Origin: a virus
DNA length: 10,456 nt
Virus record (IMG/VR): IMGVR_UViG_3300000494_000001
Location: 1 to 10,456 of that record
Reading direction: 5' to 3' (one strand)
In this document: positions 1-10,456 of the stretch, one piece after another
Numbering within the stretch: the first letter of the stretch is position 1
Layout of the letters: every line of letters begins with the position of its first letter
Program-made: the position numbers and the translations under genes
The notes under the pieces: model-generated
The model's database searches: none
What the model was told of the DNA's origin: nothing
Seen by the model: the letters and a program-made list of their open reading frames with translations, nothing else

Positions 1-15
1 ACAAAATAATTTCAT

Positions 16-25
16 CAAATATTTG
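16..25. repeat. 10-bp perfect palindrome CAAATATTTG inside the left ITR (mirror copy at 10432..10441)
   Basis: Read directly: the sequence is self-complementary and, being part of the ITR, is present in both ITRs. Confidence 0.85.
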
Positions 26-36
26 CAACTAAAATT

Positions 37-50
37 GTTTCACGTGAAAC
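37..50. promoter_or_regulatory. 14-bp perfect palindrome GTTTCACGTGAAAC inside the left ITR; candidate protein-binding site and/or 3' hairpin of the long transcript
   Basis: Perfectly self-complementary. It lies 1 nt downstream (in transcript sense) of the endolysin stop codon and is followed in that sense by AATTTTAG. An identical copy sits at 10407..10420. Confidence 0.6.
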
Positions 51-51
51 A

Positions 52-654
52 TTATTTATTTTTTACTTCAACTATAAAATTATCATAACCTAATTTTTTT
101 AATTCATTAGATAGTTTAATTGCATTTTCTTTATTTTTAAATGCACCAACTTGAACACGATATAAAATATTATTTTCAGTAGTTTTATTGTTTTTTATTC
201 TATCAATAAATGTATTCCATGTAATAGGTTTACCACTTCTAATATTAGCAGGGCAATTTTTACCACTCCATTTATTATGTTGAACAACATTCTCAATAGA
301 TATATTATGTTTATTCATTAGATATTTTACTAATTCAATAGTATTTTCAATAGTTTTATTAAAATCACCATCACTATTTACACACATTTCAATTCCTATA
401 CTATTTAAGTTACCATCACCCCTGCCATCTCCACAATGCCAACATTGAACACTATCCTCATAATGTTGAATAATCTGCTTATCATCTACTGTATAATGCC
501 ATGTAGCATTACTACCATTATTAATATATTTAGCATGATTTAAAGCATTAGCACCTTTATTTATGTTACCTGTTTCATGTATGGTAATATATTTACATTT
601 ATTAATTCCTGTATAGTGATTTTTATTATTAGATAACATTTTGGTAATTTTCAT
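52..654 (-). CDS. Endolysin: N-acetylmuramoyl-L-alanine amidase (Amidase_2/PGRP fold) with C-terminal SPOR peptidoglycan-binding domain
   Basis: N-terminal motifs ITIHETGN, WHYTVDD, WHCGDG and NSIGIEMC, plus HNKWSGKNC (His-x7-Cys, the Zn-ligand spacing of T7-lysozyme-type amidases). C-terminal YRVQVGAFKNKENAIKLSNELKKLGY is a classic SPOR signature. ATG at 654 follows a GGGGTG RBS and overlaps the upstream stop (TAATG). The last 3 codons and the stop lie inside the ITR. Confidence 0.9.
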   Translation of the reverse strand: MKITKMLSNNKNHYTGINKCKYITIHETGNINKGANALNHAKYINNGSNATWHYTVDDKQIIQHYEDSVQCWHCGDGRGDGNLNSIGIEMCVNSDGDFNKTIENTIELVKYLMNKHNISIENVVQHNKWSGKNCPANIRSGKPITWNTFIDRIKNNKTTENNILYRVQVGAFKNKENAIKLSNELKKLGYDNFIVEVKNK

Positions 655-1667
655 TATACAAACACCCCATTTCTTAATAAATTTTTAATTTCTTCTTGTT
701 CTTGATTAGTTGCATTAGTTTCCAATACTATTTTATCACATTCTATATAGCCTGCATAATCTCCAATTCTACCATATTCAACTACTGAACCACCAAAAAT
801 ATTATTATCTTTAGTATATGGTATATTTCTATTTACTTCTATAAAACATCTATTAATTTTATTCTTATAAACATTACTAATACTATTAATAACATTACCA
901 TTAGATTTTTGAATAAATGGTATATTCATACCTATTAAGCCTTGAACACTTGCAACTATTTCATTATTAAAACTGCTTTTAATATTAGCTGTTAAAGTAC
1001 CACTATATAATTCTATGGTAAATGTTATAGTCAATTTTTGTCCTATAACATATTCAGTATTTAGATAAACCTTATCTAAAAATGGTAAATGTAAAATACA
1101 TTCAGTATTAATAAAATCATATATATTATTATATTTTAAAGGTACTTCAATTTCTCCACCGTCAATATCGAATGAATAAGTTGATATTAAGGTACTTTCT
1201 ACCCCACTATCAAAAGTACCTAATAATATATTGCTTTTATCACCTAAAATATCATTAGGAATATCAAAAGGCAATATATATAATGAAGTAATAAACTGTC
1301 CATAATCTACAATTTGCAACCCATCTGTATAAAAGCGTGCTTTAGATAATTCTGTTAGTTCTGATTGATTAGTTTTATATAGATTAACAAAAGTTCCTAA
1401 CTGTTCAACATCTTTAGTGGCAATATAATCATCATCTAAATAAAAATTAAAATTTAAATCACTTGTTCCAATTGATTTTTGTAAATAAGTTCCATAGTTA
1501 TTAATTTCATAAGTAAACCCGCCCCTTCTATAACTATATGCACCCTTAAAAGTATAGCCATCATTAGCAGTTATAATAATATTTTTACCTGCTTCTAAAA
1601 AATCACCATTTGAATAATTACAAGTAGCATTAACAATAGTTCCTGTTATATAAACCCTTCCTGCCAT
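654..1667 (-). CDS. Tail knob/tube protein, C-terminal portion (phi29 gp9-like); may be fused to the upstream ORF by a frameshift
   Basis: C-terminus GYIECDKIVLETNATNQEQEEIKNLLRNGVFV resembles the recalled phi29 gp9 C-terminus ([32 protein letters not shown]). I prefer the ATG at 1667 (MAGRVY...) because it follows an AGGGGG RBS and sits just after the upstream stop. The ORF-track start at 1691 lies inside the upstream gene. Confidence 0.5.
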   Translation of the reverse strand: MAGRVYITGTIVNATCNYSNGDFLEAGKNIIITANDGYTFKGAYSYRRGGFTYEINNYGTYLQKSIGTSDLNFNFYLDDDYIATKDVEQLGTFVNLYKTNQSELTELSKARFYTDGLQIVDYGQFITSLYILPFDIPNDILGDKSNILLGTFDSGVESTLISTYSFDIDGGEIEVPLKYNNIYDFINTECILHLPFLDKVYLNTEYVIGQKLTITFTIELYSGTLTANIKSSFNNEIVASVQGLIGMNIPFIQKSNGNVINSISNVYKNKINRCFIEVNRNIPYTKDNNIFGGSVVEYGRIGDYAGYIECDKIVLETNATNQEQEEIKNLLRNGVFV

Positions 1668-1669
1668 TA

Positions 1670-2101
1670 TTATACGCCCCCTATAGTACATAAAATAGTT
1701 GTTTTAACATCTTCAAAAACAACATTTGAATTATATATATTACTCTCTTTTCTTACTTCACTTGAATAATCAAAATCATAATAATTATTATAATTTGTAT
1801 GTCTTGTAATATTACCGTATGAATTTAATATATCATCTTTAAAACTCATTAGTACATCACATTTTAAAGTTAAATGATATATTTTATTAGGAAATACTTC
1901 AACTGTTTCAATAAAATAATATCTTTTAAATTTATCTATATATACATAATTAAAATTTATTAAATCATCATATTTTAGTACTATTATAGGATTGTAAATA
2001 TTAACTTCATCTTTAAATTTAACATCTATATCAGTAACAAAATCAATAACCTTGTTTATAGTATTTACACTACTTTCAGTATTATAAGCCTTAACAATCA
2101 T
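1670..2101 (-). CDS. Tail knob/tube protein, N-terminal portion (phi29 gp9 N-domain-like)
   Basis: FNYVYIDKFKRYYFIETVEVFPNKIYHLTLKCDVLMSFKDDI parallels the recalled phi29 gp9 N-terminal segment (SYIMFQN..WFYAFVTELEF..VTYVHFEIDVLQTWMFDI). The ORF-track start at 2110 is a GTG. The ATG at 2101 (MIVKAYN) is preceded by a TAGGAGTGG RBS at about 8 nt. Confidence 0.45.
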   Translation of the reverse strand: MIVKAYNTESSVNTINKVIDFVTDIDVKFKDEVNIYNPIIVLKYDDLINFNYVYIDKFKRYYFIETVEVFPNKIYHLTLKCDVLMSFKDDILNSYGNITRHTNYNNYYDFDYSSEVRKESNIYNSNVVFEDVKTTILCTIGGV

Positions 2102-2115
2102 TAATACCACTCCTA

Positions 2116-2156
2116 TATTAAAATAGGGTAGTAGTGATTGTTAATCACCACTACCC
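2116..2156 (-). terminator. Rho-independent terminator/attenuator downstream of the capsid gene
   Basis: In minus-strand sense: GGGUAGUGGUGAU-UAACA-AUCACUACUACCC, a 13-bp stem followed by UAUUUUAAUAU. The one non-Watson-Crick pair is G.U in the minus-sense RNA but A.C in the opposite sense, which supports function in the sense transcript. Confidence 0.6.
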
Positions 2157-2172
2157 AAGTTCAATTTATTTA

Positions 2173-3381
2173 CTACTCCCCATTTACATTTCCATTTTTA
2201 TCTTCATATGCCATAAAGAATACTACAAAATTTTCGTTCAAGTCATTAAAATAACCTGCGTCAAATTTGAAATAGTTGTTGAAAAATTCTGCTTTAGCAT
2301 TATAGTTAGTTGTTACCCTTCTATCCAAATTAGTAACACCTAATGCCTCTCTATCAAACATTACTGCTAAAATACCACTAATATTAACTATTCTATTTTT
2401 AGTTCCATCTTTAGTCAGCTTTACATTGATAGATGAAATATCTTCAAATGAATAGTTTTGTCCACTACCCTGCCAATATGGTATAGTATCAGCTTTAGGC
2501 AACTCAACCAATTCTTTATTAAATGTATTAGCCTGTAGATAAACATTTGCAGCAGCTTTAAAATCTGAAAGCATAACAATATTCAGCTTATCTTTAGGCG
2601 TAAATCTCTCTTTACCACCAACATTAAATAGAGTTGAAATTTTAGTCAGTCTATCAGCATAAAGGTTAATGGTATAGGTAGCATATTTTATAAAACCTTC
2701 ATCTGACAATGCTTTATCTGGCGTCAGAGTAGTTCCGTTCAAATCATTATATTGTTTCAACAGGTTTACTGCTTTAATTCCTGTTTTATCTGCGTATGTT
2801 TCCCCAACACCCAATGGAATATCATGGTAAACAGTTTCAGCAATCATATTATTGATAGTTCTCATAATCAGACTATCAATTTTAATAGTCATGCTGTTTT
2901 CAACTGCATTATAAAGCATTGACAAAAAGCCATTCAATTGATTAGCATTTGTAAAACTTTCTTTAACCTGTCTTTCTGTAAAACTCATAGGTACTTCAAA
3001 AGTAACTCTCTTATTGAAGAATTTAGCACTTACAGAAGGTTTATAAAAAATATCTTGATTATAGGTTTCACCATTTACCAAATCCCAACTATCATTTTCT
3101 ATAGCCTGTGGAATATCTGCCTGTATTTTCTCTAATACACTTCCAAATTCCCAACTGTCCATTAGAACACTAGGAATATTACCGCTATATGGACGGTTAA
3201 CAAAAACAGTTTTACCTACTTTATTTACCAATGATTTTACATAGTTGTCAACACTCACATTATCAAATAGTTCTGTTCCTACATCTACAACATTAGATAA
3301 ATCTTCCTGAAGCAAATCCGATTTTCCCAGCAATTCATTTGTAATACTATTCACCAAATTATAAATTTGTTCAACTTTCAT
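2173..3381 (-). CDS. Major capsid protein (phi29 gp8-like, HK97-fold expected)
   Basis: Size (about 402 aa), its position between the morphogenesis genes and the tail knob, the terminator immediately downstream, and an N-terminal pattern resembling phi29 gp8 as I recall it. The ORF-track start at 3399 is a TTG overlapping the upstream stop. The ATG at 3381 (MKVEQIYN) follows an AAAGGAG RBS at 8 nt. Confidence 0.7.
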   Translation of the reverse strand: MKVEQIYNLVNSITNELLGKSDLLQEDLSNVVDVGTELFDNVSVDNYVKSLVNKVGKTVFVNRPYSGNIPSVLMDSWEFGSVLEKIQADIPQAIENDSWDLVNGETYNQDIFYKPSVSAKFFNKRVTFEVPMSFTERQVKESFTNANQLNGFLSMLYNAVENSMTIKIDSLIMRTINNMIAETVYHDIPLGVGETYADKTGIKAVNLLKQYNDLNGTTLTPDKALSDEGFIKYATYTINLYADRLTKISTLFNVGGKERFTPKDKLNIVMLSDFKAAANVYLQANTFNKELVELPKADTIPYWQGSGQNYSFEDISSINVKLTKDGTKNRIVNISGILAVMFDREALGVTNLDRRVTTNYNAKAEFFNNYFKFDAGYFNDLNENFVVFFMAYEDKNGNVNGE

Positions 3382-3395
3382 CTTAATAACTCCTT

Positions 3396-3941
3396 TCAAT
3401 TTAAAATATTTAAAGTAACAACACTATTTACATCCGTTATCATTATATTATAAATATTAAAATCTGTCAAATACCTATTGACTTTATCATAGAAGTCCAC
3501 TTCTTTTATTTTAGTTCTTATAATTTCTTTATTACCTTCATTACCTGTTACTATGTTTTCAACTGTAGTATTTTCATCATTATTAATAAAATCTTCATCA
3601 TTATAAGCACTTACTTTATTAGTATCAGTTCTAGTATTATCAGTAGTCATATTACTAGTTGATAGTTCTGTAATAGTTTCCTTATAATTTGTTAGTAGAT
3701 TTTCACTATCCAAATAATTTAATATAATGTTATTCCACTTATGCATAAATTGATTATTTAAAATACTAGCAAGTTCATTAAGTTCTAGGTTTTCAACTAT
3801 TTCTGCAACTTCTCTATTGCCATACATATTAATATAGTATTTATCTAGTAACTTACTATCTACAAAATTAAATATATCCTGCCCCGGCTGTAGTTCATCC
3901 ATAGTTTCAAATAGATTAGTTAAACATTCTTTTACTTTCAT
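3396..3941 (-). CDS. Hypothetical morphogenesis protein (candidate scaffolding protein by position directly upstream of the capsid gene)
   Basis: 181-aa ORF with a helical N-terminal half and an acidic, N/T/D-rich low-complexity centre. Its ATG overlaps the upstream stop (ATGA) and follows a TAGGAGTGAG RBS. I recognise no family. Confidence 0.55.
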   Translation of the reverse strand: MKVKECLTNLFETMDELQPGQDIFNFVDSKLLDKYYINMYGNREVAEIVENLELNELASILNNQFMHKWNNIILNYLDSENLLTNYKETITELSTSNMTTDNTRTDTNKVSAYNDEDFINNDENTTVENIVTGNEGNKEIIRTKIKEVDFYDKVNRYLTDFNIYNIMITDVNSVVTLNILN

Positions 3942-4429
3942 CTTCTCACTCCTATTCTTAATTTTCTATTATTAATATCAATCATCATTTTAAATACTTG
4001 TAATTCATTCTTTACCTTTACTATATTAGGTATAAATCTTCTTAAACTATCAGCACTTAAAAAATATGTTAGGAAAAATTCCATGCTTTCAGCTATTTTA
4101 TATAGGGTATATAATTCAGTTGCCATTATTGATAGTCTTTTTAAATCACTTGATAACATATTTAGTTTCATAATCATATCATTAGTTTTATTATTAAATT
4201 CACTAAAAAATATATGAAGTTCAGCCCTGTTTACTTTTAACATTCTATCAAAATTTCTTTTTACTGTATTCAAAGGAAATTCAATAGTAGAAATATATTG
4301 ACTTACAATGTATGCGTTGCTATCATCAACACTATTTAGAATATTTATTAATTGATTTAAACTATTTTCTAATATAGTACATGATGAATAGGATTGATAC
4401 ATATTATTTTTTACTGCTGTTAAACTCAT
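3938..4429 (-). CDS. Hypothetical structural/morphogenesis protein (predicted largely helical; possible head-tail adaptor/lower-collar substitute)
   Basis: 163-aa ORF preceded by an AAGGAGAGGG RBS and translationally coupled to the next gene. I recognise no motif. The functional suggestion rests only on its position after the portal gene. Confidence 0.5.
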   Translation of the reverse strand: MSLTAVKNNMYQSYSSCTILENSLNQLINILNSVDDSNAYIVSQYISTIEFPLNTVKRNFDRMLKVNRAELHIFFSEFNNKTNDMIMKLNMLSSDLKRLSIMATELYTLYKIAESMEFFLTYFLSADSLRRFIPNIVKVKNELQVFKMMIDINNRKLRIGVRR

Positions 4430-4483
4430 TTAGCCCTCTCCTTTTCATCTTCTTCATCTTCTGTTTCTTTATCTTCTGTTTTT

Positions 4484-5467
4484 TCATCTTCTTCCAGCAG
4501 GTGCTTCATCAGCAGGTGCTTCATCAGCAGGTGCTTCATCAGCAGGTGCTTCATCAATGTTTTCTATATTAGTATCTTTATCTTGATTTAAACTAGTTAT
4601 ATAACTAATATTTTCAAGGCTTCTAATATTCCAACTACTATTAAAATCTACTGTTATATCTAAACCAAATAAACGGTTTATTTCTTCTAATGCCCTTCTT
4701 CTACTGTTTAGCATATCATCAACTAATGGATATAAACTATCTGAATTAGTTGTAAATTCTTCTTTAGTAATTCTTTCTTTTTTCATGTTATAGTTAGCAC
4801 TTAAACCAATTTCATTATAAAAACTTGCTTTTATATATTGCTCAAATTCAATTAAATCTCTTAATGTTCCTCTATAATCTGTATTAGGATTGACTTTTAA
4901 GCCATCGAATAATTTAGTTTCAGCTATTACCCCTTGTTTACCATCAAATATATTTTTTAAGAATAGTTCGGCACTCCTAACAGTATTATCATCATTAGCA
5001 CTAATTAAAGTTGTATATCTTTTATTAACATTTGCTAATATCATTGTTATCATATTTTCATTTAGTATAAATGCATATCTTTGAAACAATGGTAGAAGTC
5101 CAACATTACAACTATCATTACTAATAACAATACAATCTTTATTAATATCTAATGTATTATTATAGTTCAATGCAGGTATAGAAACAGTTGCTTTAGTTGG
5201 TCTATTATATACATCAGGCTCTCCACCTAAACCACCATTTACAACATAAAAATCATTACCAATTTTTAGAAATATAGCAAACCCATTTGTTTGCAATAAT
5301 ATCTCAAGTTCTTTAGAAGGTATTGTTTCTGGTAAATTATTATACTTAAACATAGCATTAGTACGATTAAGCATATAAGCAATAGTATTTTTAATATTTG
5401 TTTCTTTATCCATATAATCAAAATCCCTTGATTTACTGCCTATAAAATACTTATCTACTTTAGCCAT
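4484..5467 (-). CDS. Portal / upper collar (connector) protein, phi29 gp10 family
   Basis: Collinear motif matches to phi29 gp10 as recalled: YNNLPETIPSKELE (W.NLPPTI..LE), GEPDVYN (QRDVYN), ISNDS, LISANDDNTV (LIRANDNNQ), NMKKERITKEE (NLEKKERMVTDE) and INRLFGLDITVDF (INELYGLNVKVKF). The ATG at 5467 (MAKVDKY) follows an AAGGGAG RBS and overlaps the holin stop. The ORF-track start at 5494 lies inside the holin gene. Confidence 0.85.
   Translation of the reverse strand: MAKVDKYFIGSKSRDFDYMDKETNIKNTIAYMLNRTNAMFKYNNLPETIPSKELEILLQTNGFAIFLKIGNDFYVVNGGLGGEPDVYNRPTKATVSIPALNYNNTLDINKDCIVISNDSCNVGLLPLFQRYAFILNENMITMILANVNKRYTTLISANDDNTVRSAELFLKNIFDGKQGVIAETKLFDGLKVNPNTDYRGTLRDLIEFEQYIKASFYNEIGLSANYNMKKERITKEEFTTNSDSLYPLVDDMLNSRRRALEEINRLFGLDITVDFNSSWNIRSLENISYITSLNQDKDTNIENIDEAPADEAPADEAPADEAPAGRR
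4496..4555. repeat. Perfect 15-bp tandem repeat x4 (AGCAGGTGCTTCATC on plus strand) encoding (DEAPA)4 at the portal C-terminus
   Basis: Four identical head-to-tail units at 4496-4510, 4511-4525, 4526-4540 and 4541-4555. The unit length is a multiple of 3. Confidence 0.95.
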
Positions 5468-5669
5468 TTTTTGTACTCCCTTCTTTATTTTCAAGTCTTA
5501 CACATAATTCTTTTAATGTTAATGTATTATTTTCAATTACTTTAGTTAGTTCCTTCATTTGTTTATCATATCTTTCGTCTTGCTTCCAGTTCTGATAGAA
5601 TAATGCTATTGATACGGCAATAGGAAAACCTAGCCCGTTAATTAGTTGCATGATTGTTTCAAAATTCAT
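5460..5669 (-). CDS. Holin-like protein, BhlA/UviB family
   Basis: 69 aa with a single N-terminal TM segment (GLGFPIAVSIALFY) followed by a charged coiled-coil tail. The LFY...K...E.Y pattern and the roughly 70-aa length match BhlA/UviB holins of Bacillus and Clostridium elements. RBS is AGAGGGA. Confidence 0.6.
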   Translation of the reverse strand: MNFETIMQLINGLGFPIAVSIALFYQNWKQDERYDKQMKELTKVIENNTLTLKELCVRLENKEGSTKNG

Positions 5670-5681
5670 TTAAATCCCTCT

Positions 5682-6782
5682 TTATAAGTTTTTACATATT
5701 TTTAGGTAGTTGTTAATAGCATCCCCAACTTCATTATTTTGATAAAATACTTTATCATTAACAAAAAACCATAATAATCTTTTCTGTAAAGTATTTATCG
5801 GCTTGTATATACTTCTATTATAATTCAATTTATGAGAAGGTTCAAGGCTATAAATTAAATCATTATCTTCATCTTGTATATCTGTAGTTTTAATATGAAT
5901 ATAGGTAAACATTTCGCCATCAACTTCTATGACATTACATTGATATATTTTATCATTAAATTTTATAAAATACCTAAATAAAACATCTTTAGGCTTATAT
6001 TTTACGGGTAAATGAGGATATAGATTTAATTCCCATGCCCCGCTTGTAATCATGTTTAATTTAGGATTGTTAAAGGCAAAATAATAATTATTTTCTTTAC
6101 TGCCTTTCATACTTTCACAATATTCAACTGCTACTGTCAATTCACTTGTTCCATAAGTATAAACATCTATAGTACCTTGTTTCATTTTATCAATATGCGT
6201 TAAACCCATTTCAGCAAAATAAGGGCAATATTTATTAACTGTATTGCCCAACATAAAGATTTTTACATTAGTTCTTTGTCTTATTATTGTGCTAATTGTA
6301 TTCATAAATAATACAAACTCATCTTGTAAATAGGTAAATTTAGTTAGAAATTCATCAAATAATATAGTAGTAACTCTAGGATATGATATACTTTTATTAT
6401 GTTCTGTATCTGATAAAGCAAAAACATAACCTATACAATCATTATCAGAATATAAAGGTTTTCCATTATCAGCATATTTACAAACATAGAATTTACCTGC
6501 ATAATAAGTAATACCTTCATATTCTCCATTACTTGCTTTTTTCACTTCTCCATTATAATTTAAGGCACTAAACATATCACTAGCCCTTTTACCTGTAATA
6601 TCTTCCTTCCACCTTCTTATAATTGCCATTTGTCCACCTGTTTTAAAATATTGTTCAATACCATATTTTAAAACTGCATAAGTTTTACCATTACTTCTTT
6701 CACCAAATATAACATTGTAAACACAATTCTTTCTTAAAATATTATCTAAACTATAATATTTTAGTTCCTGTTTTCTAGCCAT
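5682..6782 (-). CDS. DNA encapsidation (packaging) ATPase, phi29 gp16 family
   Basis: Walker A is FGERSNGKTY and Walker B is VTTILFDEF, followed by IFMLGNTVN..PYF. These are collinear with phi29 gp16 (GARGIGKSY / STIVFDEF / CLSNAVSVVNPYF, as recalled). Confidence 0.9.
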   Translation of the reverse strand: MARKQELKYYSLDNILRKNCVYNVIFGERSNGKTYAVLKYGIEQYFKTGGQMAIIRRWKEDITGKRASDMFSALNYNGEVKKASNGEYEGITYYAGKFYVCKYADNGKPLYSDNDCIGYVFALSDTEHNKSISYPRVTTILFDEFLTKFTYLQDEFVLFMNTISTIIRQRTNVKIFMLGNTVNKYCPYFAEMGLTHIDKMKQGTIDVYTYGTSELTVAVEYCESMKGSKENNYYFAFNNPKLNMITSGAWELNLYPHLPVKYKPKDVLFRYFIKFNDKIYQCNVIEVDGEMFTYIHIKTTDIQDEDNDLIYSLEPSHKLNYNRSIYKPINTLQKRLLWFFVNDKVFYQNNEVGDAINNYLKICKNL

Positions 6783-6784
6783 AA

Positions 6785-8911
6785 TTAAACACCCTTTCTA
6801 TTTTTAAATAAATAACCTTCTCTAAAATCTTTTAAAAATTTACCATATTGTTTACTAATTGATAAAGTAAATTCACACTTATCTAAATGAATACATGAGG
6901 GTATATAAATATCTTCAACATTTCCCTGATAATCTATTGATTGTATTCTCATTTCTTCATCAATATAAGTATGAGTATTTTTACCTGTTTCATCAGCAGG
7001 TATATAAAGTTCATCATTGAACATATCAAACACCTTTTCATAATCATTATTACATACCCTTTTCATATATTCAATGCCATTCTTTTTAGATAGTCCAGCA
7101 ACAGTTAAAGCTAATTCCCCATTATCATATCTAACTAAATATCTTTTAGCACCTAATGTTTTAAAATGCGTATAATGTCCGTCATAATCCCATACCCCCA
7201 TCATTTTTTCAATTCCTTCTTTAGTTTTAGGCTTCATTAAATTAAAATCAATTTTTCTAAAATTACACATCTTTTTTAACTTCTCAACTAAATTTTTATT
7301 ATACCATTCAATATATGGTATATGTTTTTCATAGTTTAATAATTTAACACTATCAGTATCACTATATACATAATCTTCCCCAATGTTTAAAATACCACTC
7401 CATAAATTACGCCTTGCATATGCTGTAACCCATACACCCCACGGATAATATAAAAACCTGTTCGGACTATTATTATATGTTTCTATCTGTTTTTCAATTT
7501 CTCCATCACTAGGTTTAATAATATTCCATTCTTCATTATATTCTATTAATTCCCTTACTATATCAGTAACCGTCATTCCATAAACACTATTAAGCATACC
7601 TTTAGATAATAAATATTCTACTTCATATCCTTCAACCCCTTTTAAAGTTGTTTTATTCTGATATAACTCTAATATGCTTTCTATTATAGGTTTAGGTAGA
7701 TACTGCATATAAAATTTATAGCAATTTGCTATTTCTACACTATCCCATGAATAACATTGTTTTAATATTTTATAGTCTATATCGGTAATAGTTGTTATAA
7801 TTTCATCTGCTTGATATATCCTGCCATTGTTAACTATTGCATTTTTTTGACTAAAACATTTACTTTCACTTAAATAGCTTTCATACGTTAGTTTAGAATG
7901 TAACCCCTTAATTTTAATATCAAACATTAACCCAACATCTTCATTCCTTACTAAATCTTCAAAATTTTCCTTTCTTAAATCAACTTTTATCGGTTTACTC
8001 ATTGGATACTTTTCAGCTAACATAACGCTAGGATAACTACTTGTAAAATCTATACTTGTAACATCTTCTAATGTTTTACCTACATACTTTAAACTAGCAT
8101 GAGTAAACCCGCCCATAAAACACCTTTTTAGCATTACATATTCATCTAATGATAGTGTCAGTTCTTTCATTAATTCTCTATATCTGTTATACTTCCCTTT
8201 ACTGCTTTTATTATGATTTTTGTCTGTAAAGTAACATTTCTCTTTTACGAATTTTCTCACCCTTCCTGTATTAGTTAAAGGTATTTTAGTAATGTTATTA
8301 TCATATAATTGTATCTGCTCATTGATATAATATAGAATAATTAAAATATCATTCTTACAATATGCCATTTCTTCATCTGATAAAACAGTTTTACTATTTC
8401 TTATTAATGAATAATCTAAATCACCCACTAGCTTTTTAATCTTATGTTTAGTTAAATTTTTAGCCAAATTAGCCAATGAATAGCCGCTTAATATATAACT
8501 ATCTCTAAATTCTACACCTTGTTTTATTACTGCTTTTATTGGTTTTCTTTCTTCCGTTGAAAATACATTTTCCCATTCAAAAAATTTTCTCATGAATTGA
8601 AATTCATAGCCTAAATTATGAACATATATAATTAGCCTATTATATAAATTGAGTTCTAATTGATTAATTAACATCTGCATAAATTCGCCAAACTGTTCCC
8701 ATGTTCTACCATAGTAAACAGTTTCACCAATTCCAAACATCCATATATACATATAGGCACACTTTTCACCATTATATAACTGTGAAGTTGTTTCTATATC
8801 AAAAGCACATTCAATATTATAATACTTAATTACCTGTTTGCTATGAATATTATAATATGATACTGTTTTATAATCTTCTTTATTTAATTTCATATTCTGA
8901 TACCATAGCAT
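6785..8911 (-). CDS. Protein-primed family-B DNA polymerase
   Basis: Exo I AFDIETT, Exo II YVHNLGYEFQF, Exo III YCKNDILI, YxGG-like FMGGFTH, motif A DFTSSYPS, motif B KGMLNSVYG, motif C YVYSDTDS and KxY GAKRY. All are in the canonical order and match the phi29/PRD1/adenovirus-type protein-primed subgroup. GAGGTGG RBS. Confidence 0.95.
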   Translation of the reverse strand: MLWYQNMKLNKEDYKTVSYYNIHSKQVIKYYNIECAFDIETTSQLYNGEKCAYMYIWMFGIGETVYYGRTWEQFGEFMQMLINQLELNLYNRLIIYVHNLGYEFQFMRKFFEWENVFSTEERKPIKAVIKQGVEFRDSYILSGYSLANLAKNLTKHKIKKLVGDLDYSLIRNSKTVLSDEEMAYCKNDILIILYYINEQIQLYDNNITKIPLTNTGRVRKFVKEKCYFTDKNHNKSSKGKYNRYRELMKELTLSLDEYVMLKRCFMGGFTHASLKYVGKTLEDVTSIDFTSSYPSVMLAEKYPMSKPIKVDLRKENFEDLVRNEDVGLMFDIKIKGLHSKLTYESYLSESKCFSQKNAIVNNGRIYQADEIITTITDIDYKILKQCYSWDSVEIANCYKFYMQYLPKPIIESILELYQNKTTLKGVEGYEVEYLLSKGMLNSVYGMTVTDIVRELIEYNEEWNIIKPSDGEIEKQIETYNNSPNRFLYYPWGVWVTAYARRNLWSGILNIGEDYVYSDTDSVKLLNYEKHIPYIEWYNKNLVEKLKKMCNFRKIDFNLMKPKTKEGIEKMMGVWDYDGHYTHFKTLGAKRYLVRYDNGELALTVAGLSKKNGIEYMKRVCNNDYEKVFDMFNDELYIPADETGKNTHTYIDEEMRIQSIDYQGNVEDIYIPSCIHLDKCEFTLSISKQYGKFLKDFREGYLFKNRKGV

Positions 8912-8924
8912 TTAGCCACCTCAT

Positions 8925-9509
8925 TTATATTTTTATAAAATCCCAATCCTTAATACCTTCTTTAAATCCTTCTTGATTATCTTCTACTTGGACAACCTTT
9001 TCTAGTTCTTGTATAAATATCTGTAGTCTTTCTTCTGTGCTTTCCACACCTGTTAAATCTAATATACCTTGTTTAATTTGAACATTAATTTGTTCCCATA
9101 TTTTTTGATAATCTAATGCTAATGCATTTAATTCACTCATTTTATAGTATTCTTTAATTTTATCTGCTAATCTAAAAAATTCCTTTGATTTAGCTTTTAA
9201 TTCTGCTAAACTGTTATATTTAATACCTGTATTTTCTGCCATTTCTCTTAAATATTTATTTGCTTCTCTTACTAGACTTGTTTTATTATCCAAAAATCTT
9301 TTTAATCTCCAAAATTCTGCTTGTAATTGATTATAGTCTTTACCTTTAACACTGAATTTAATTGCCCCACCTTTAACCCATGATTGATATGCAGGTAAAT
9401 CAGTTAATTCATTTCTTTCAAGTCTTTTTAATCTCTTATTTGCCATACTTGCCATTCTGCTTACTTCTTTCTTTAGTTCTAAATACTTTTTACTTGCTAA
9501 TTGTGTCAT
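8925..9509 (-). CDS. Candidate terminal protein (TP)
   Basis: It lies immediately upstream of the polymerase, as in phi29 (gene 3 then gene 2). It has a basic N-terminus (KRLKRLERN..DLP). DYNQLQAEFWRLKRFLDNKTSLVREANKY resembles the phi29 TP segment FETRAQFNKWKEQASSFTNRANMRY (recalled). ITRs and a protein-primed polymerase require a TP. Confidence 0.5.
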   Translation of the reverse strand: MTQLASKKYLELKKEVSRMASMANKRLKRLERNELTDLPAYQSWVKGGAIKFSVKGKDYNQLQAEFWRLKRFLDNKTSLVREANKYLREMAENTGIKYNSLAELKAKSKEFFRLADKIKEYYKMSELNALALDYQKIWEQINVQIKQGILDLTGVESTEERLQIFIQELEKVVQVEDNQEGFKEGIKDWDFIKI

Positions 9510-9534
9510 TATTAAACCCCCTTTAACCTTTCAA

Positions 9535-9765
9535 TTATTCTTTAATCATTTCATAGAATAGTTTATTGTATAATACTTCTAATTGATATATATTTGATTG
9601 TTTCATATACATATATAGATATTTAATATTGTTAGCCCTTCCTTGCTCAAATGCGTGTATATTCTGCAAGTTTTCATTATTAAGTTTAGCAAAATTAGTT
9701 AAAGATAATTTCAAAACATTAATTCTATAATCTTTACATATTGCACCTATTTTTTTAATATCCAT
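9535..9765 (-). CDS. XRE-family helix-turn-helix transcriptional regulator
   Basis: LSLTNFAKLNNENLQNIHAFEQGRANN fits the HTH_3 pattern (helix, turn, recognition helix, then E.G). The protein is small (76 aa). AAGGTGGTGA RBS. Confidence 0.6.
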   Translation of the reverse strand: MDIKKIGAICKDYRINVLKLSLTNFAKLNNENLQNIHAFEQGRANNIKYLYMYMKQSNIYQLEVLYNKLFYEMIKE

Positions 9766-9780
9766 TATTTCACCACCTTA

Positions 9781-9815
9781 TTTTAAAATAGGGCAGGGTA
9801 TTTAAACCCTACCCC
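9781..9815 (-). terminator. GC-rich hairpin with short U-tract: candidate leaky terminator/attenuator after the first early gene(s)
   Basis: Minus-sense GGGGUAGGGU-UUAAAU-ACCCUGCCC(U) followed by AUUUUAAAA: a 9-10 bp stem with G.U wobbles only in the sense RNA. The stem contains the last codons and the stop of the 121-aa ORF. Its design is similar to the hairpin at 2126..2156. Confidence 0.4.
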
Positions 9816-10167
9816 AATTTACTGAATACCCTTTTTTCAATTCTTTACCTTGCCTGTACTCATATTCATAAATTTTGAATACAAACTTACCTTCATTAAT
9901 TAGTTTTACATATTCTTCATTGTTTACAATCTTTTTAACTGTTTCTGTTAAATGTTTAGGTAAATTAATAATGTAATCATCTGTTACAACTACTTCATTT
10001 TCACCATACAAAGACTTTTTATTAGTGTAGAACATTCTTACAATATATACACCGTCTTTATTTTCTTTGTATAGTTCTTCTAACTTTTTGTATTCGTGCT
10101 TATCTGTTAGTTCATAGTCAAATTTTTTAGTACCTTTGTTTAACCCATCAATCAAATTAAATTTCAT
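9802..10167 (-). CDS. Hypothetical early protein (possible DNA-binding/SSB-type replication accessory protein, by position and size only)
   Basis: 121-aa ORF with an AGGGGTG RBS, the first substantial gene after the end promoter. Its size is comparable to phi29 p5/p6. The family is not recognisable by eye. Confidence 0.55.
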   Translation of the reverse strand: MKFNLIDGLNKGTKKFDYELTDKHEYKKLEELYKENKDGVYIVRMFYTNKKSLYGENEVVVTDDYIINLPKHLTETVKKIVNNEEYVKLINEGKFVFKIYEYEYRQGKELKKGYSVNWGRV

Positions 10168-10168
10168 A

Positions 10169-10297
10169 TTAATACACCCCTTTATTATTGTTATAGTATT
10201 CTTTCAAACCTTCCCAACTTGCTACAATGTTTTTACTCTTACATAGTTTTACATAATCAAATAGATACTTAACATTCAAGTAAACCACTCCCTTCAT
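10169..10297 (-). CDS. Possible small early ORF (42 aa from the ATG; 36 aa if it starts at the in-frame TTG at 10279)
   Basis: Not in the supplied track because it is too short. It translates as MKGVVYLNVKYLFDYVKLCKSKNIVASWEGLKEYYNNNKGVY. The in-frame TTG is preceded by AAGGGAGTGG at about 5 nt. The stop lies 1 nt before the next ATG. It could equally be an untranslated leader. Confidence 0.3.
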   Translation of the reverse strand: MKGVVYLNVKYLFDYVKLCKSKNIVASWEGLKEYYNNNKGVY

Positions 10298-10316
10298 TTA
10301 TTTAATTTCTATCCAC

Positions 10317-10345
10317 ATTATAAACCATAAATATTTTATTATCAA
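10317..10345 (-). promoter_or_regulatory. Sigma-A-type promoter: TTGATA - 17 nt - TATAAT, reading into the genome from the right end
   Basis: The reverse complement reads ttctaTTGATAataaaatatttatggttTATAATgtggat. The -35 is 10340..10345 (5/6), the spacer is exactly 17 nt, and the -10 is 10317..10322 (6/6). It is the only noncoding stretch upstream of the whole gene train. Confidence 0.6.
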
Positions 10346-10362
10346 TAGAAAATCTAAAAATT

Positions 10363-10391
10363 TTATGTTACATTATGTTAAATTTATGTTA
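10363..10391. promoter_or_regulatory. Three direct repeats of TTATGTTA (minus-sense TAACATAA), spaced 10 and 11 bp, between the right ITR and the -35
   Basis: Exact 8-mers at 10363-10370, 10373-10380 and 10384-10391. Copies 1 and 3 extend to TTATGTTACA. The spacing is helical, and the repeats sit at about -40 to -75 relative to the predicted start. Confidence 0.5.
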
Positions 10392-10394
10392 CAC

Positions 10395-10456
10395 AAAATA
10401 AATAATGTTTCACGTGAAACAATTTTAGTTGCAAATATTTGATGAAATTATTTTGT
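10395..10456. repeat. Right inverted terminal repeat (62 bp)
   Basis: Exact reverse complement of 1..62. It contains the mirrored palindromes at 10407..10420 and 10432..10441. Confidence 0.95.

Follow-up and report, generated by a model that had tools for sequence, protein, structure and literature searches.

A very small phi29-like podophage genome, probably clipped inside its terminal repeats, with parS sites at both ends

Does a viral contig that is bounded exactly by perfect inverted repeats represent a whole genome, and to which phages does it belong? The virus record IMGVR_UViG_3300000494_000001 raises both questions; its 10,456 bp, hereafter the window (the whole stretch of DNA that was analyzed), are an entire Joint Genome Institute (JGI) contig. 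The inverted terminal repeats (ITRs) at its exact ends are 100% complementary over 62 nt, whereas the next-best inverted repeats in the window are at most 34 nt long at 70–86% identity. A sequence-only reading, which noted these repeats correctly, had taken the window for a complete genome about half the size of classical phi29-like phages, probably from an undescribed lineage at the lower size limit for tailed phages. Based on comparisons with isolates and metagenomic relatives, we consider it very probable that the window covers nearly all of the linear genome of a very small podophage of the phi29 type, from an uncultivated, low-GC (~25–27%) sublineage of the Astrithrvirus-related group, and that its ITRs have been clipped. 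Both repeats also contain canonical parS sites, which may bear on how this lineage persists in its hosts.

The closest full-length relative, IMGVR_UViG_3300025589_000230 (L011; 10,973 bp), is 88–90% identical in DNA across almost all of the window and has a perfect ITR of 230 nt. Window positions 1–65 align to L011 157–221, and the 62-nt repeat corresponds to L011 157–218, the inner portion of that ITR; relatives that carry this sequence 157–218 nt inside their ITR are 82–90% identical to the window in DNA. Because the same sequence lies inside the 230-nt ITR of relatives, the 62-nt repeat is best read as the inner stub of a longer ITR. L011, the Acinetobacter phage Phanie and the Pectobacterium phage DU_PP_III have the ITR terminus GGGTTATCC in common (first bases GGGTTATCCCACC..., GGGTTATCCGCC and GGGATATCCGCC, respectively), a shared end of the kind expected for a protein-primed origin. 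Five contigs of two relative types, L011 from IMG/VR, L091 from JGI and L123, L124 and L126 from ENA, continue beyond the last base of the window with the same sequence, the junction being ...ATTATTTTGT followed directly by CAATATTTGT..., with the window ending between the two. Homologous contigs of relatives extend in this way beyond both window ends, and the two arms break off at one and the same ITR position, an identical stop of the sort that overlap in an assembly graph produces. Longer contigs past either end, which the sequence-only reading had named as evidence against completeness, were found in relatives, and its "complete" is not supported: the 62 nt are the inner stretch of an ITR that spans ~220–230 nt.

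The repeat lengths of other contigs in the lineage point to the assembler. Many measure exactly 119 or 141 nt in IMG/VR and 141 or 55 nt in contigs from metagenome-assembled genomes (MAGs), with arbitrary start sequences (119 nt in L015, L033, L046, L048, L055 and L076; 141 nt in L038, L078 and L096; 55 nt in L119 and L007), and the Logan contigs L138–L140 end exactly 30 nt into the repeat. MEGAHIT uses k values of 119 and 141, SPAdes 55 and Logan 31. Many ITR-bounded contigs of the lineage, with repeat lengths equal to a common k or k − 1, are thus assembler-clipped, and their genome sizes are therefore underestimated. A length of 62 nt would fit k − 1 for k = 63, presuming such an assembler setting, and we infer that the window is a de Bruijn unitig that ends a fixed overlap into the repeat, with ~150–200 nt gone from each end. 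Given an outer ITR like that of L011, the true genome probably measures ~10,456 + 2 × 156 = ~10.77 kb.

The terminal repeats themselves vary across the group, from 60 to 1050 nt in length. Their inner edge shifts among close relatives: in L137–L140 both repeats extend over 30–63 nt from the 3′ part of the lysin gene. True termini are of two conserved types, GGG[T/A]TATCC followed by a C-rich run (positions 1–20 of L011, L003, L004 and L028) and AAAGGTA[CT][GA]C... (positions 1–20 of L020, L024, L031, L043, L068, L069 and others), and contigs of the second type have ragged starts. Tandem repeats occupy the outer ITR, with about nine copies of CCACAAAGTTTT in L123 (~10700–10844) and L126 (~5350–5454) and, in L011 60–156, several units of the TTGACA[C]AAAAT type; these may be binding sites or promoters, and assembly breaks are likely to result from them.

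To which phages, then, does this genome belong? A megablast search against 50,697 phage records returned only 571 nt at 73% identity, in DU_PP_III (5% of the window), which puts the window below the intergenomic nucleotide similarity to Astrithrvirus astrithr of at least about 70% that delimits the genus Astrithrvirus. By protein, the related isolates are the Salmonella phages astrithr, assan and Astrid (11.6–11.7 kb; genus Astrithrvirus of the International Committee on Taxonomy of Viruses), DU_PP_III (11,504 bp), Phanie (11,885 bp), Enterobacter phage Entb_47 (11,593 bp), Shigella phage vB_SHGBLB0004 (11,151 bp) and Vibrio phage K58 g2 (a 10,390-bp record), with identities of 49–57% for the family B DNA polymerase (PolB), 54–60% for the capsid, 59–67% for the packaging ATPase and 37–52% for the terminal-protein (TP) candidate; Phanie, at 56% for PolB and 60% for the capsid, also matches the two tail-knob parts (gp9 and gp10) at 33–34%. 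The K58 g2 record (L002, OZ195715.1), which runs from within the ATPase gene to a point inside PolB and lacks an ITR, is permuted or incomplete and offers no support for a 10.4-kb genome. The protein-primed PolB, the ITRs, the gp10-type connector, the gp16-type ATPase and the Phi29-type capsid place the window among the phi29-like podophages. Capsid similarity and the core gene order with a split tail knob place it, at the family level, in "cluster 23", which Evseev et al. 2024 (PMC11476376) describe as phi29-like phages of 11–14 kb with a TP, a short lower collar, a two-gene tail knob and no fibres. Other papers call Astrid or astrithr (11.6 kb) the smallest isolated tailed phage.

Most relatives are uncultivated. 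IMG/VR holds 335 capsid relatives, and among 80 of these most are ITR-bounded contigs of 10.6–12.9 kb, the ITR-bounded relatives starting at 10,656 bp. Three ENA contigs of 11.5–11.8 kb from wastewater and other samples (L123–L125) have the same one-strand gene order, the 163-aa and 181-aa proteins (p163 and p181) and an Amidase_2+SPOR lysin. DNA identity to the window is 94% for the Logan contigs L138–L143, 91% for L137 and 82% for L123–L126; the NCBI contig JBJSVV010036386.1 (L144) is another close uncultivated relative. Across this set, identities of 82–94% hold for most of the length, and none is at least 95% identical over a complete genome. As judged from these sequences, the window represents a new species, and the low-GC group to which it belongs, of about genus rank and uncultivated, lies outside the genus Astrithrvirus and is not a new lineage. 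The earlier idea of an undescribed lineage does not hold: Astrithrvirus and the allied isolates (11.2–11.9 kb) share its gene order and 49–67% core-protein identity, and PMC11476376 already covers the group. Nor does the genome lie at the lower size limit, since its corrected size is ~10.8 kb, relatives start at 10,656 bp, and the 91%-identical, lysin-less L137 is smaller. Hundreds of metagenomic relatives measure 10.6–12.9 kb, and Mycoplasma phage P1 as a lone small outlier is likewise out of date. With the corrected size, the genome is still about half as large as that of phi29 (~10.8 vs 19.3 kb), and the 6-bp length given for the phi29 ITR is right.

The gene content supports this placement (Table 1). 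All 14 credible open reading frames (ORFs) lie on the minus strand, in line with the 13–14 one-strand genes counted initially, and make up ~96% of a sequence with ~26% GC and a negative GC skew throughout. Gene starts were picked by Shine-Dalgarno-like motifs, which precede 13 of the 14 genes; all 14 start with ATG. The order runs from small early genes through the TP candidate, PolB, gp16-type ATPase, holin-like protein, gp10-type portal, p163, p181, capsid and two-gene tail knob to the lysin beside the ITR. Pfam and PHROG give family matches for seven genes, including one PHROG family that has no known function, and Pfam, PHROG and PDB matches together bear out the early identification of PolB, ATPase, portal, capsid, holin and endolysin. 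The sole PDB match of PolB is the phi29 DNA polymerase (DNAP). Among the remaining proteins, p163 has no family matches in Pfam or PHROG, and the 121-aa early protein (p121) shows no link to the phi29 single-stranded DNA-binding protein (gp5) or to PDB entries. Transcription would probably run one way from the early promoter-like site (10345–10317), and the TTTATGTTACA triplet beside it is a candidate operator, e.g., for the 76-aa helix-turn-helix (HTH) protein (p76).

Table 1. Features of the window, with coordinates, strand and the evidence for each
Feature	Position	Strand	Evidence
Left ITR stub (inner stretch of a longer repeat)	1–62		Perfect complement of 10395–10456; aligns to L011 157–218; relatives run outward beyond base 1
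Canonical 16-bp parS palindrome TGTTTCACGTGAAACA, left	36–51		Exact match; abuts lysin stop codon
Endolysin, N-acetylmuramoyl-L-alanine amidase with C-terminal SPOR	52–654	−	Amidase_2 3.9e-23; SPOR 4.1e-7
Distal tail (knob C-part) protein, short 337-aa form	654–1667	−	Longest ORF to 1691; likely start MAGRV
Tail-knob N-part protein (143–146 aa)	1670–2101	−	Profile matches to tail-knob N-termini
Terminator-like hairpin 3′ of capsid gene	2126–2156	−	14-pair stem, T-rich tail; consensus match only
Major capsid protein	2173–3381	−	Phi29_MCP 1.7e-58
Putative short lower collar or tail tube, 181 aa (p181)	3396–3941	−	Inferred from position
Sigma-70 consensus, 12/12 (TTGACA-17-TATAAT), upstream of capsid gene	3442–3470	−	Consensus match only
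Sublineage-confined protein, 163 aa (p163), scaffold candidate	3938–4429	−	Homologues in closest loci only
Out-of-frame acidic portal tail (EEDEKTEDKETEDEEDEKERAK, then stop)	4426–4495	−	Suggests 1-nt indel at 4494–4495
Portal, gp10-type connector, ends (DEAPA)x4	4484–5467	−	Phage_connector gp10 4.4e-19; phi29 connector best PDB match
Holin-like protein, 69 aa, one hydrophobic segment	5460–5669	−	PHROG 4898 holin, E 1.6e-5; homologues in 86 loci
DNA encapsidation ATPase, gp16 type	5682–6782	−	Podovirus_Gp16 8.7e-22; phi29 gp16 best PDB match
Protein-primed family B DNA polymerase	6785–8911	−	DNA_pol_B_2 PF03175 7.5e-16; phrog_1907 7.9e-81; phi29 DNAP 1xhx 9e-8
Terminal-protein candidate, 194 aa, all-alpha	8925–9509	−	Directly upstream of PolB in 77 relatives
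Putative HTH regulator, 76 aa (p76)	9535–9765	−	Weak HTH_3/HTH_19 matches in L127 orthologue; homologues in Phanie, DU_PP_III, Entb_47
Conserved early protein, 121 aa (p121)	9802–10167	−	Homologues in 70 loci
First ORF, 42 aa	10169–10297	−	phrog_11749, E 1.9e-8 (family with no known function); conserved in L011
Early promoter-like site (TTGATA-17-TATAAT)	10317–10345	−	Consensus match only
Three copies of a ~10–11-nt repeat (TTTATGTTACA) between parS and promoter-like site	10362–10393		Repeat search
Right ITR stub	10395–10456		Complement of left arm; alignment to L011 ITR; relatives read on
Canonical parS TGTTTCACGTGAAACA, right	10406–10421		Exact match; ~60 nt outside −35 of early promoter-like site

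The TP and tail assignments are softer. In a panel of six phi29 profiles compared with hhalign, the expected phi29 partner was best or joint best for the TP candidate, p181, the knob N-part (p146) and the tail protein, and only the p146–gp9 match was significant. This knob N-part aligns with gp9 residues 60–131 (hhalign E 8e-4), and its profile matches the PDB entries of phage C1 (4eo2, E 1.3e-3), 8egs (E 0.01) and phi29 gp9 (5fb4, E 0.047). For p181, the best of the six profiles was gp11 at a nonsignificant E of 0.04, and with no PDB match either, we rejected its assignment as a lower collar on its own evidence; in relatives its slot is likewise between the portal and capsid genes, and from this position p181 is a putative short lower collar or tail tube. 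The 337-aa protein is orthologous to Astrid gp10 and Phanie gp10 (33% identity), and its AlphaFold2 (AF2) model (pLDDT 81) matches Astrid gp10 in a Foldseek search of BFVD at E 6e-28, the other BFVD match being one "major tail protein". A correspondence with the phi29 gp9 C-terminus did not emerge: the best PDB Foldseek match has E 0.04 and TM ≤0.16 (lectin-like noise), and there is no PDB sequence match. HHpred and AlphaFold work on Astrid and Phanie supports a short lower collar and a split knob (PMC11476376). The tail protein occurs in short forms of 334–347 aa and long forms of ~500–556 aa, both of which recur across many samples; L011 and L123 have the long form (534–542 aa; L011 9074–10678, L123 8373–10001, compared with the ORF at 654–1691 in the window), with ~190 more N-terminal residues that resemble extra copies of a beta-rich domain (AF2 residues 1–85). 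These additional residues look like Ig-like or beta-sandwich domains. Pfam and PHROG reveal no fibre or spike gene among the window proteins.

The portal gene is interrupted at a 15-nt tandem repeat (4495–4556; four perfect copies). An acidic portal tail is in frame in all relatives, the closest of which end in DKKKV[IV], while that of the window (EEDEK...KERAK followed by a stop) is shifted into the next frame by an additional base at 4494–4495. This 1-nt indel may be a real truncation of the portal or a sequence error in the repeat region.

The earlier claim of a full replication, virion and lysis gene set is supported; of its tail knob, the N-part has profile support, and its TP remains a candidate by synteny, with no sequence or fold link to the phi29 TP found. 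Against phi29 gp3 alone and an eight-genome Salasmaviridae profile, hhalign gave E 0.09–0.17; a PDB profile search returned generic helical proteins only, and Foldseek of the AF2 model nothing below E 0.9. That model is all helical (pLDDT 76; shallow alignment of homologues at least 75% identical). The family includes more than 120 distinct 90%-identity clusters, each at least 75% identical to the window protein, with a basic N-terminal helix and a nearly invariant T77–S78 in a KTS[TL]V motif, which makes S78 or T77 a candidate priming residue. By analogy with phi29 and PRD1, a covalently bound TP would cap the genome ends, and TP and PolB would initiate at both GGG... termini by sliding-back, followed by strand displacement. 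The ATPase would package TP-DNA through the portal in the absence of a phi29-type packaging RNA (pRNA): the Rfam model RF00044 has no match in the window (E up to 10) or in L011, L123 or Phanie (E up to 1), and phi29, as a positive control, scores 145 bits. The tail would comprise p181, as a putative collar or tube, and the two-part knob, and release would use the holin-like protein with its single transmembrane segment and the amidase–SPOR lysin.

Within the repeats, the most interesting feature of the window is the parS site in each arm. Chromosomal parS is a 16-bp palindrome, TGTTTCACGTGAAACA, in which variants at position 5 or 12 are tolerated (PMC5450999). Both window copies match it exactly, with a chance expectation of 0.00. 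If its natural position-5/12 variant TGTTCCACGTGAAACA is counted as well, 71 of 137 loci of the lineage, spanning 25–44% GC, have the site. A contig end is no more than 450 nt away for 169 of the 194 sites, which often form pairs spaced 42 bp apart, and parS is inside the ITR in 27 of the 37 genomes whose ITR is at least 150 nt. In L011 it lies at 192–207, and in most IMG/VR relatives ~150–280 nt from each end. None was found in seven isolates from Gammaproteobacteria, even when 3 mismatches were allowed, and the Enterobacterales are not known to have a chromosomal ParABS system. phi29 has four exact core parS matches, and its parS sites bind Spo0J and help to segregate the genome into the prespore (PMC2731898). 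It is the sole precedent that we found: our literature search turned up no link of parS to the ITRs of such phages, and the 2024 review of phi29-like phages (PMC11476376) makes no mention of parS, Spo0J or ParB.

Pfam and PHROG scans identified no ParB gene among the 14 ORFs, and therefore host ParB would be used; p76 is not a general parS binder, because its homologues occur in only nine loci. By analogy with the phi29 sites, the ITR parS would most likely recruit host ParB/Spo0J, and ParB bound there would couple the unintegrated genome to host chromosome segregation, in a carrier state or by spore entrapment. We tentatively propose, at somewhat less than even confidence, that the sites are functional, with host ParB/Spo0J at both TP-capped ends partitioning the linear genome to daughter cells or spores, and that this is a lineage-wide trait lost in a branch that moved to the Enterobacterales. 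Together with the existence of lysin-less relatives, it may mean that the sublineage alternates between silent carriage and, possibly, helper-assisted release.

The lysin varies among near relatives. The cassette sits flush with the ITR in the window and in L123–L127 and is absent from L011, L091 and L137; L011 has no recognisable lysin from ITR to ITR, and L137 retains a remnant of 40–63 nt that is now part of its ITR. Among relatives that are 82–94% identical, the lysin thus behaves as a presence/absence cassette at the ITR boundary (window 66–623; L011 10704–10753; L137 9865–9908). One explanation, compatible with the clipped-genome reading, would make the phage a Phanie-type satellite that cannot infect by itself and whose minimal tail attaches to the contractile tail of a helper, an unrelated myophage. 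Phanie is non-infectious without the tail of its helper myophage Aci01-1 (Pourcel et al. 2024, as reported in PMC11476376 and PMC13587820), and, on these secondhand accounts, the relationship of the window to Phanie in PolB, capsid and both knob parts therefore counts in favor of such a lifestyle. The lack of a fibre or spike gene and the split knob fit it as well, and close relatives that have no recognisable lysin would be easier to understand, because the helper would lyse the cell. Dependence has nevertheless been shown in one member only and has no known sequence signature, no helper contig is linked to the window, and the window has its own holin-like protein and lysin; moreover, of all tail proteins in the group its own has the smallest number of Ig-like domains, so any docking surface may be missing. 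We therefore regard helper dependence as possible but unlikely.

A second explanation takes the parS sites further and holds that the phage is not strictly lytic and persists mainly as a linear, TP-capped episome, carried much like a phage-plasmid and partitioned by host ParABS through its ITRs. The canonical sites in both repeats, the conservation of parS close to the ends of 71 of 137 relatives and the parS/Spo0J-dependent entry of phi29 into the prespore speak for it, as does the presence of relatives in many MAG bins. Against this stand the behavior of the isolated relatives, which is lytic, the absence of a repressor, integrase, ParA or ParB gene among the 14 ORFs, and the unreliability of MAG binning for 10-kb contigs, and we find it doubtful that the episome is the main state.

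Several points weigh against a near-complete genome of this phage type with clipped ends. Exact-protein look-ups and ITR pattern scans of IMG/VR and JGI metagenomes gave relatives only and no longer contig of this exact phage, so the truncation rests on relatives and assembly logic. The TP assignment has neither sequence nor fold support beyond synteny, the p181 collar and the 337-aa knob C-part rest on position and on PMC11476376, the PDB searches here being negative, and no Spo0A boxes (TGTCGAA) were found in the window. The first of these points would also suit a complete 10,456-bp genome with true 62-bp ITRs. On that reading no tailed phage would be smaller, and the lineage would be new; the perfect repeat at the exact contig ends and the variable ITR lengths of the group (60–1050 nt) would agree with it. 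Yet its terminus falls 156 nt inside the ITR of an 88–90% identical relative that has the conserved GGGTTATCC end, five contigs of two relative types run past it, and the same stop in both arms is what graph overlap gives, as at 30, 55, 119 and 141 nt in relatives; its first bases, ACAAAA, also lack the repeated terminal base that sliding-back initiation uses. We judge a complete genome to be highly improbable. An assembly artefact, with inverted ends made by foldback or chimerism and no real ITR, deserves almost no credence: chimeric reads can yield short perfect inverted ends, but dozens of relatives, each assembled independently, have homologous ITRs, as do isolates whose terminal repeats are annotated, and the ITR sequence is 95% conserved in L011 and ~93% in L123, which already contradicts an artefact and vindicates the initial view that the repeats are real.

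For the clipped podophage genome, several clues fit an anaerobic, low-GC Bacillota host in wastewater or digesters, none of them decisively: 26% GC with strong Shine-Dalgarno usage, a lysin that combines a catalytic with a C-terminal wall-binding domain (SPOR here, CW_7 in homologues), and Tissierellia labels on two MAG proteins or contigs of close relatives, the only MAG labels that bear on close relatives and a weak lead. The presence of parS in the ITRs adds to these and implies hosts with ParABS. MAG labels as such were rejected as a source for the host, the relatives being binned with many unrelated taxa. Contigs from GTDB genomes (L092–L122) place whole genomes of lineage phages in MAGs of Prevotella, Phocaeicola, Bifidobacteriaceae, Omnitrophota, Gastranaerophilales and others; contamination during binning probably accounts for this, and the host cannot be read from it reliably.

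With this genome, a known group that holds the smallest tailed phages gains one species, and the size limit stays where it was. The results also indicate that ITR-bounded metagenomic genomes of protein-primed phages that pass as "complete" are often clipped at a k-dependent distance into the repeat, so that such contigs give ITR lengths and minimum genome sizes with a downward bias. The ITR parS sites, across much of the lineage, would extend Spo0J-mediated genome trapping, a mechanism described for phi29 only, to many uncultivated mini-phages and offer a handle on lifestyle and host range.

Set beside known systems, the window shares with phi29 (Salasmaviridae) a protein-primed PolB, the connector, the gp16 ATPase, a Phi29-type capsid, the N-terminal knob fold, ITRs and host-type parS. 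phi29 differs in its size of 19.3 kb, its 6-bp ITR, its pRNA, a one-piece knob of 599 aa and a lower collar of 293 aa, and in having appendages, head fibres and genes on both strands; its four core parS matches are internal and not in the ITR, and it has Spo0A boxes where the window has none. The Amedibacillus phages AD70P2 and AD70P3 (Guelinviridae, 12.3 kb), from sewage and on a Gram-positive anaerobe, resemble the window as small, ITR-bounded, mostly one-strand phi29-like genomes of 26.7% GC, but their capsid and PolB are only 31–33% identical and their portal lies downstream of the capsid gene. Astrithrvirus and its allied isolates (11–12 kb) are closer, with ITRs, no fibre genes, no pRNA and the same order of TP candidate, PolB, ATPase, small transmembrane protein, portal, ~180-aa protein, capsid, ~145-aa knob N-part, variable knob C-part and lysin slot. 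They have 32–40% GC, compared with 26%, and no parS, and they carry 2–4 opposite-strand genes at the far end, an isolate trait, whereas the window has none and its lysin abuts the ITR. The window has the extra 163-aa gene between portal and p181, an Amidase_2+SPOR lysin in place of their CHAP, peptidase, glucosaminidase or plain amidase, and, at 337 aa, the shortest knob C-part relative to the eight isolates compared (386–854 aa). The uncultivated relatives (L011, L123–L125 and L137–L144) differ from the window in having portals with an in-frame acidic tail, and they share its genes, p163 and p181 included, and the same inner ITR with its parS site.

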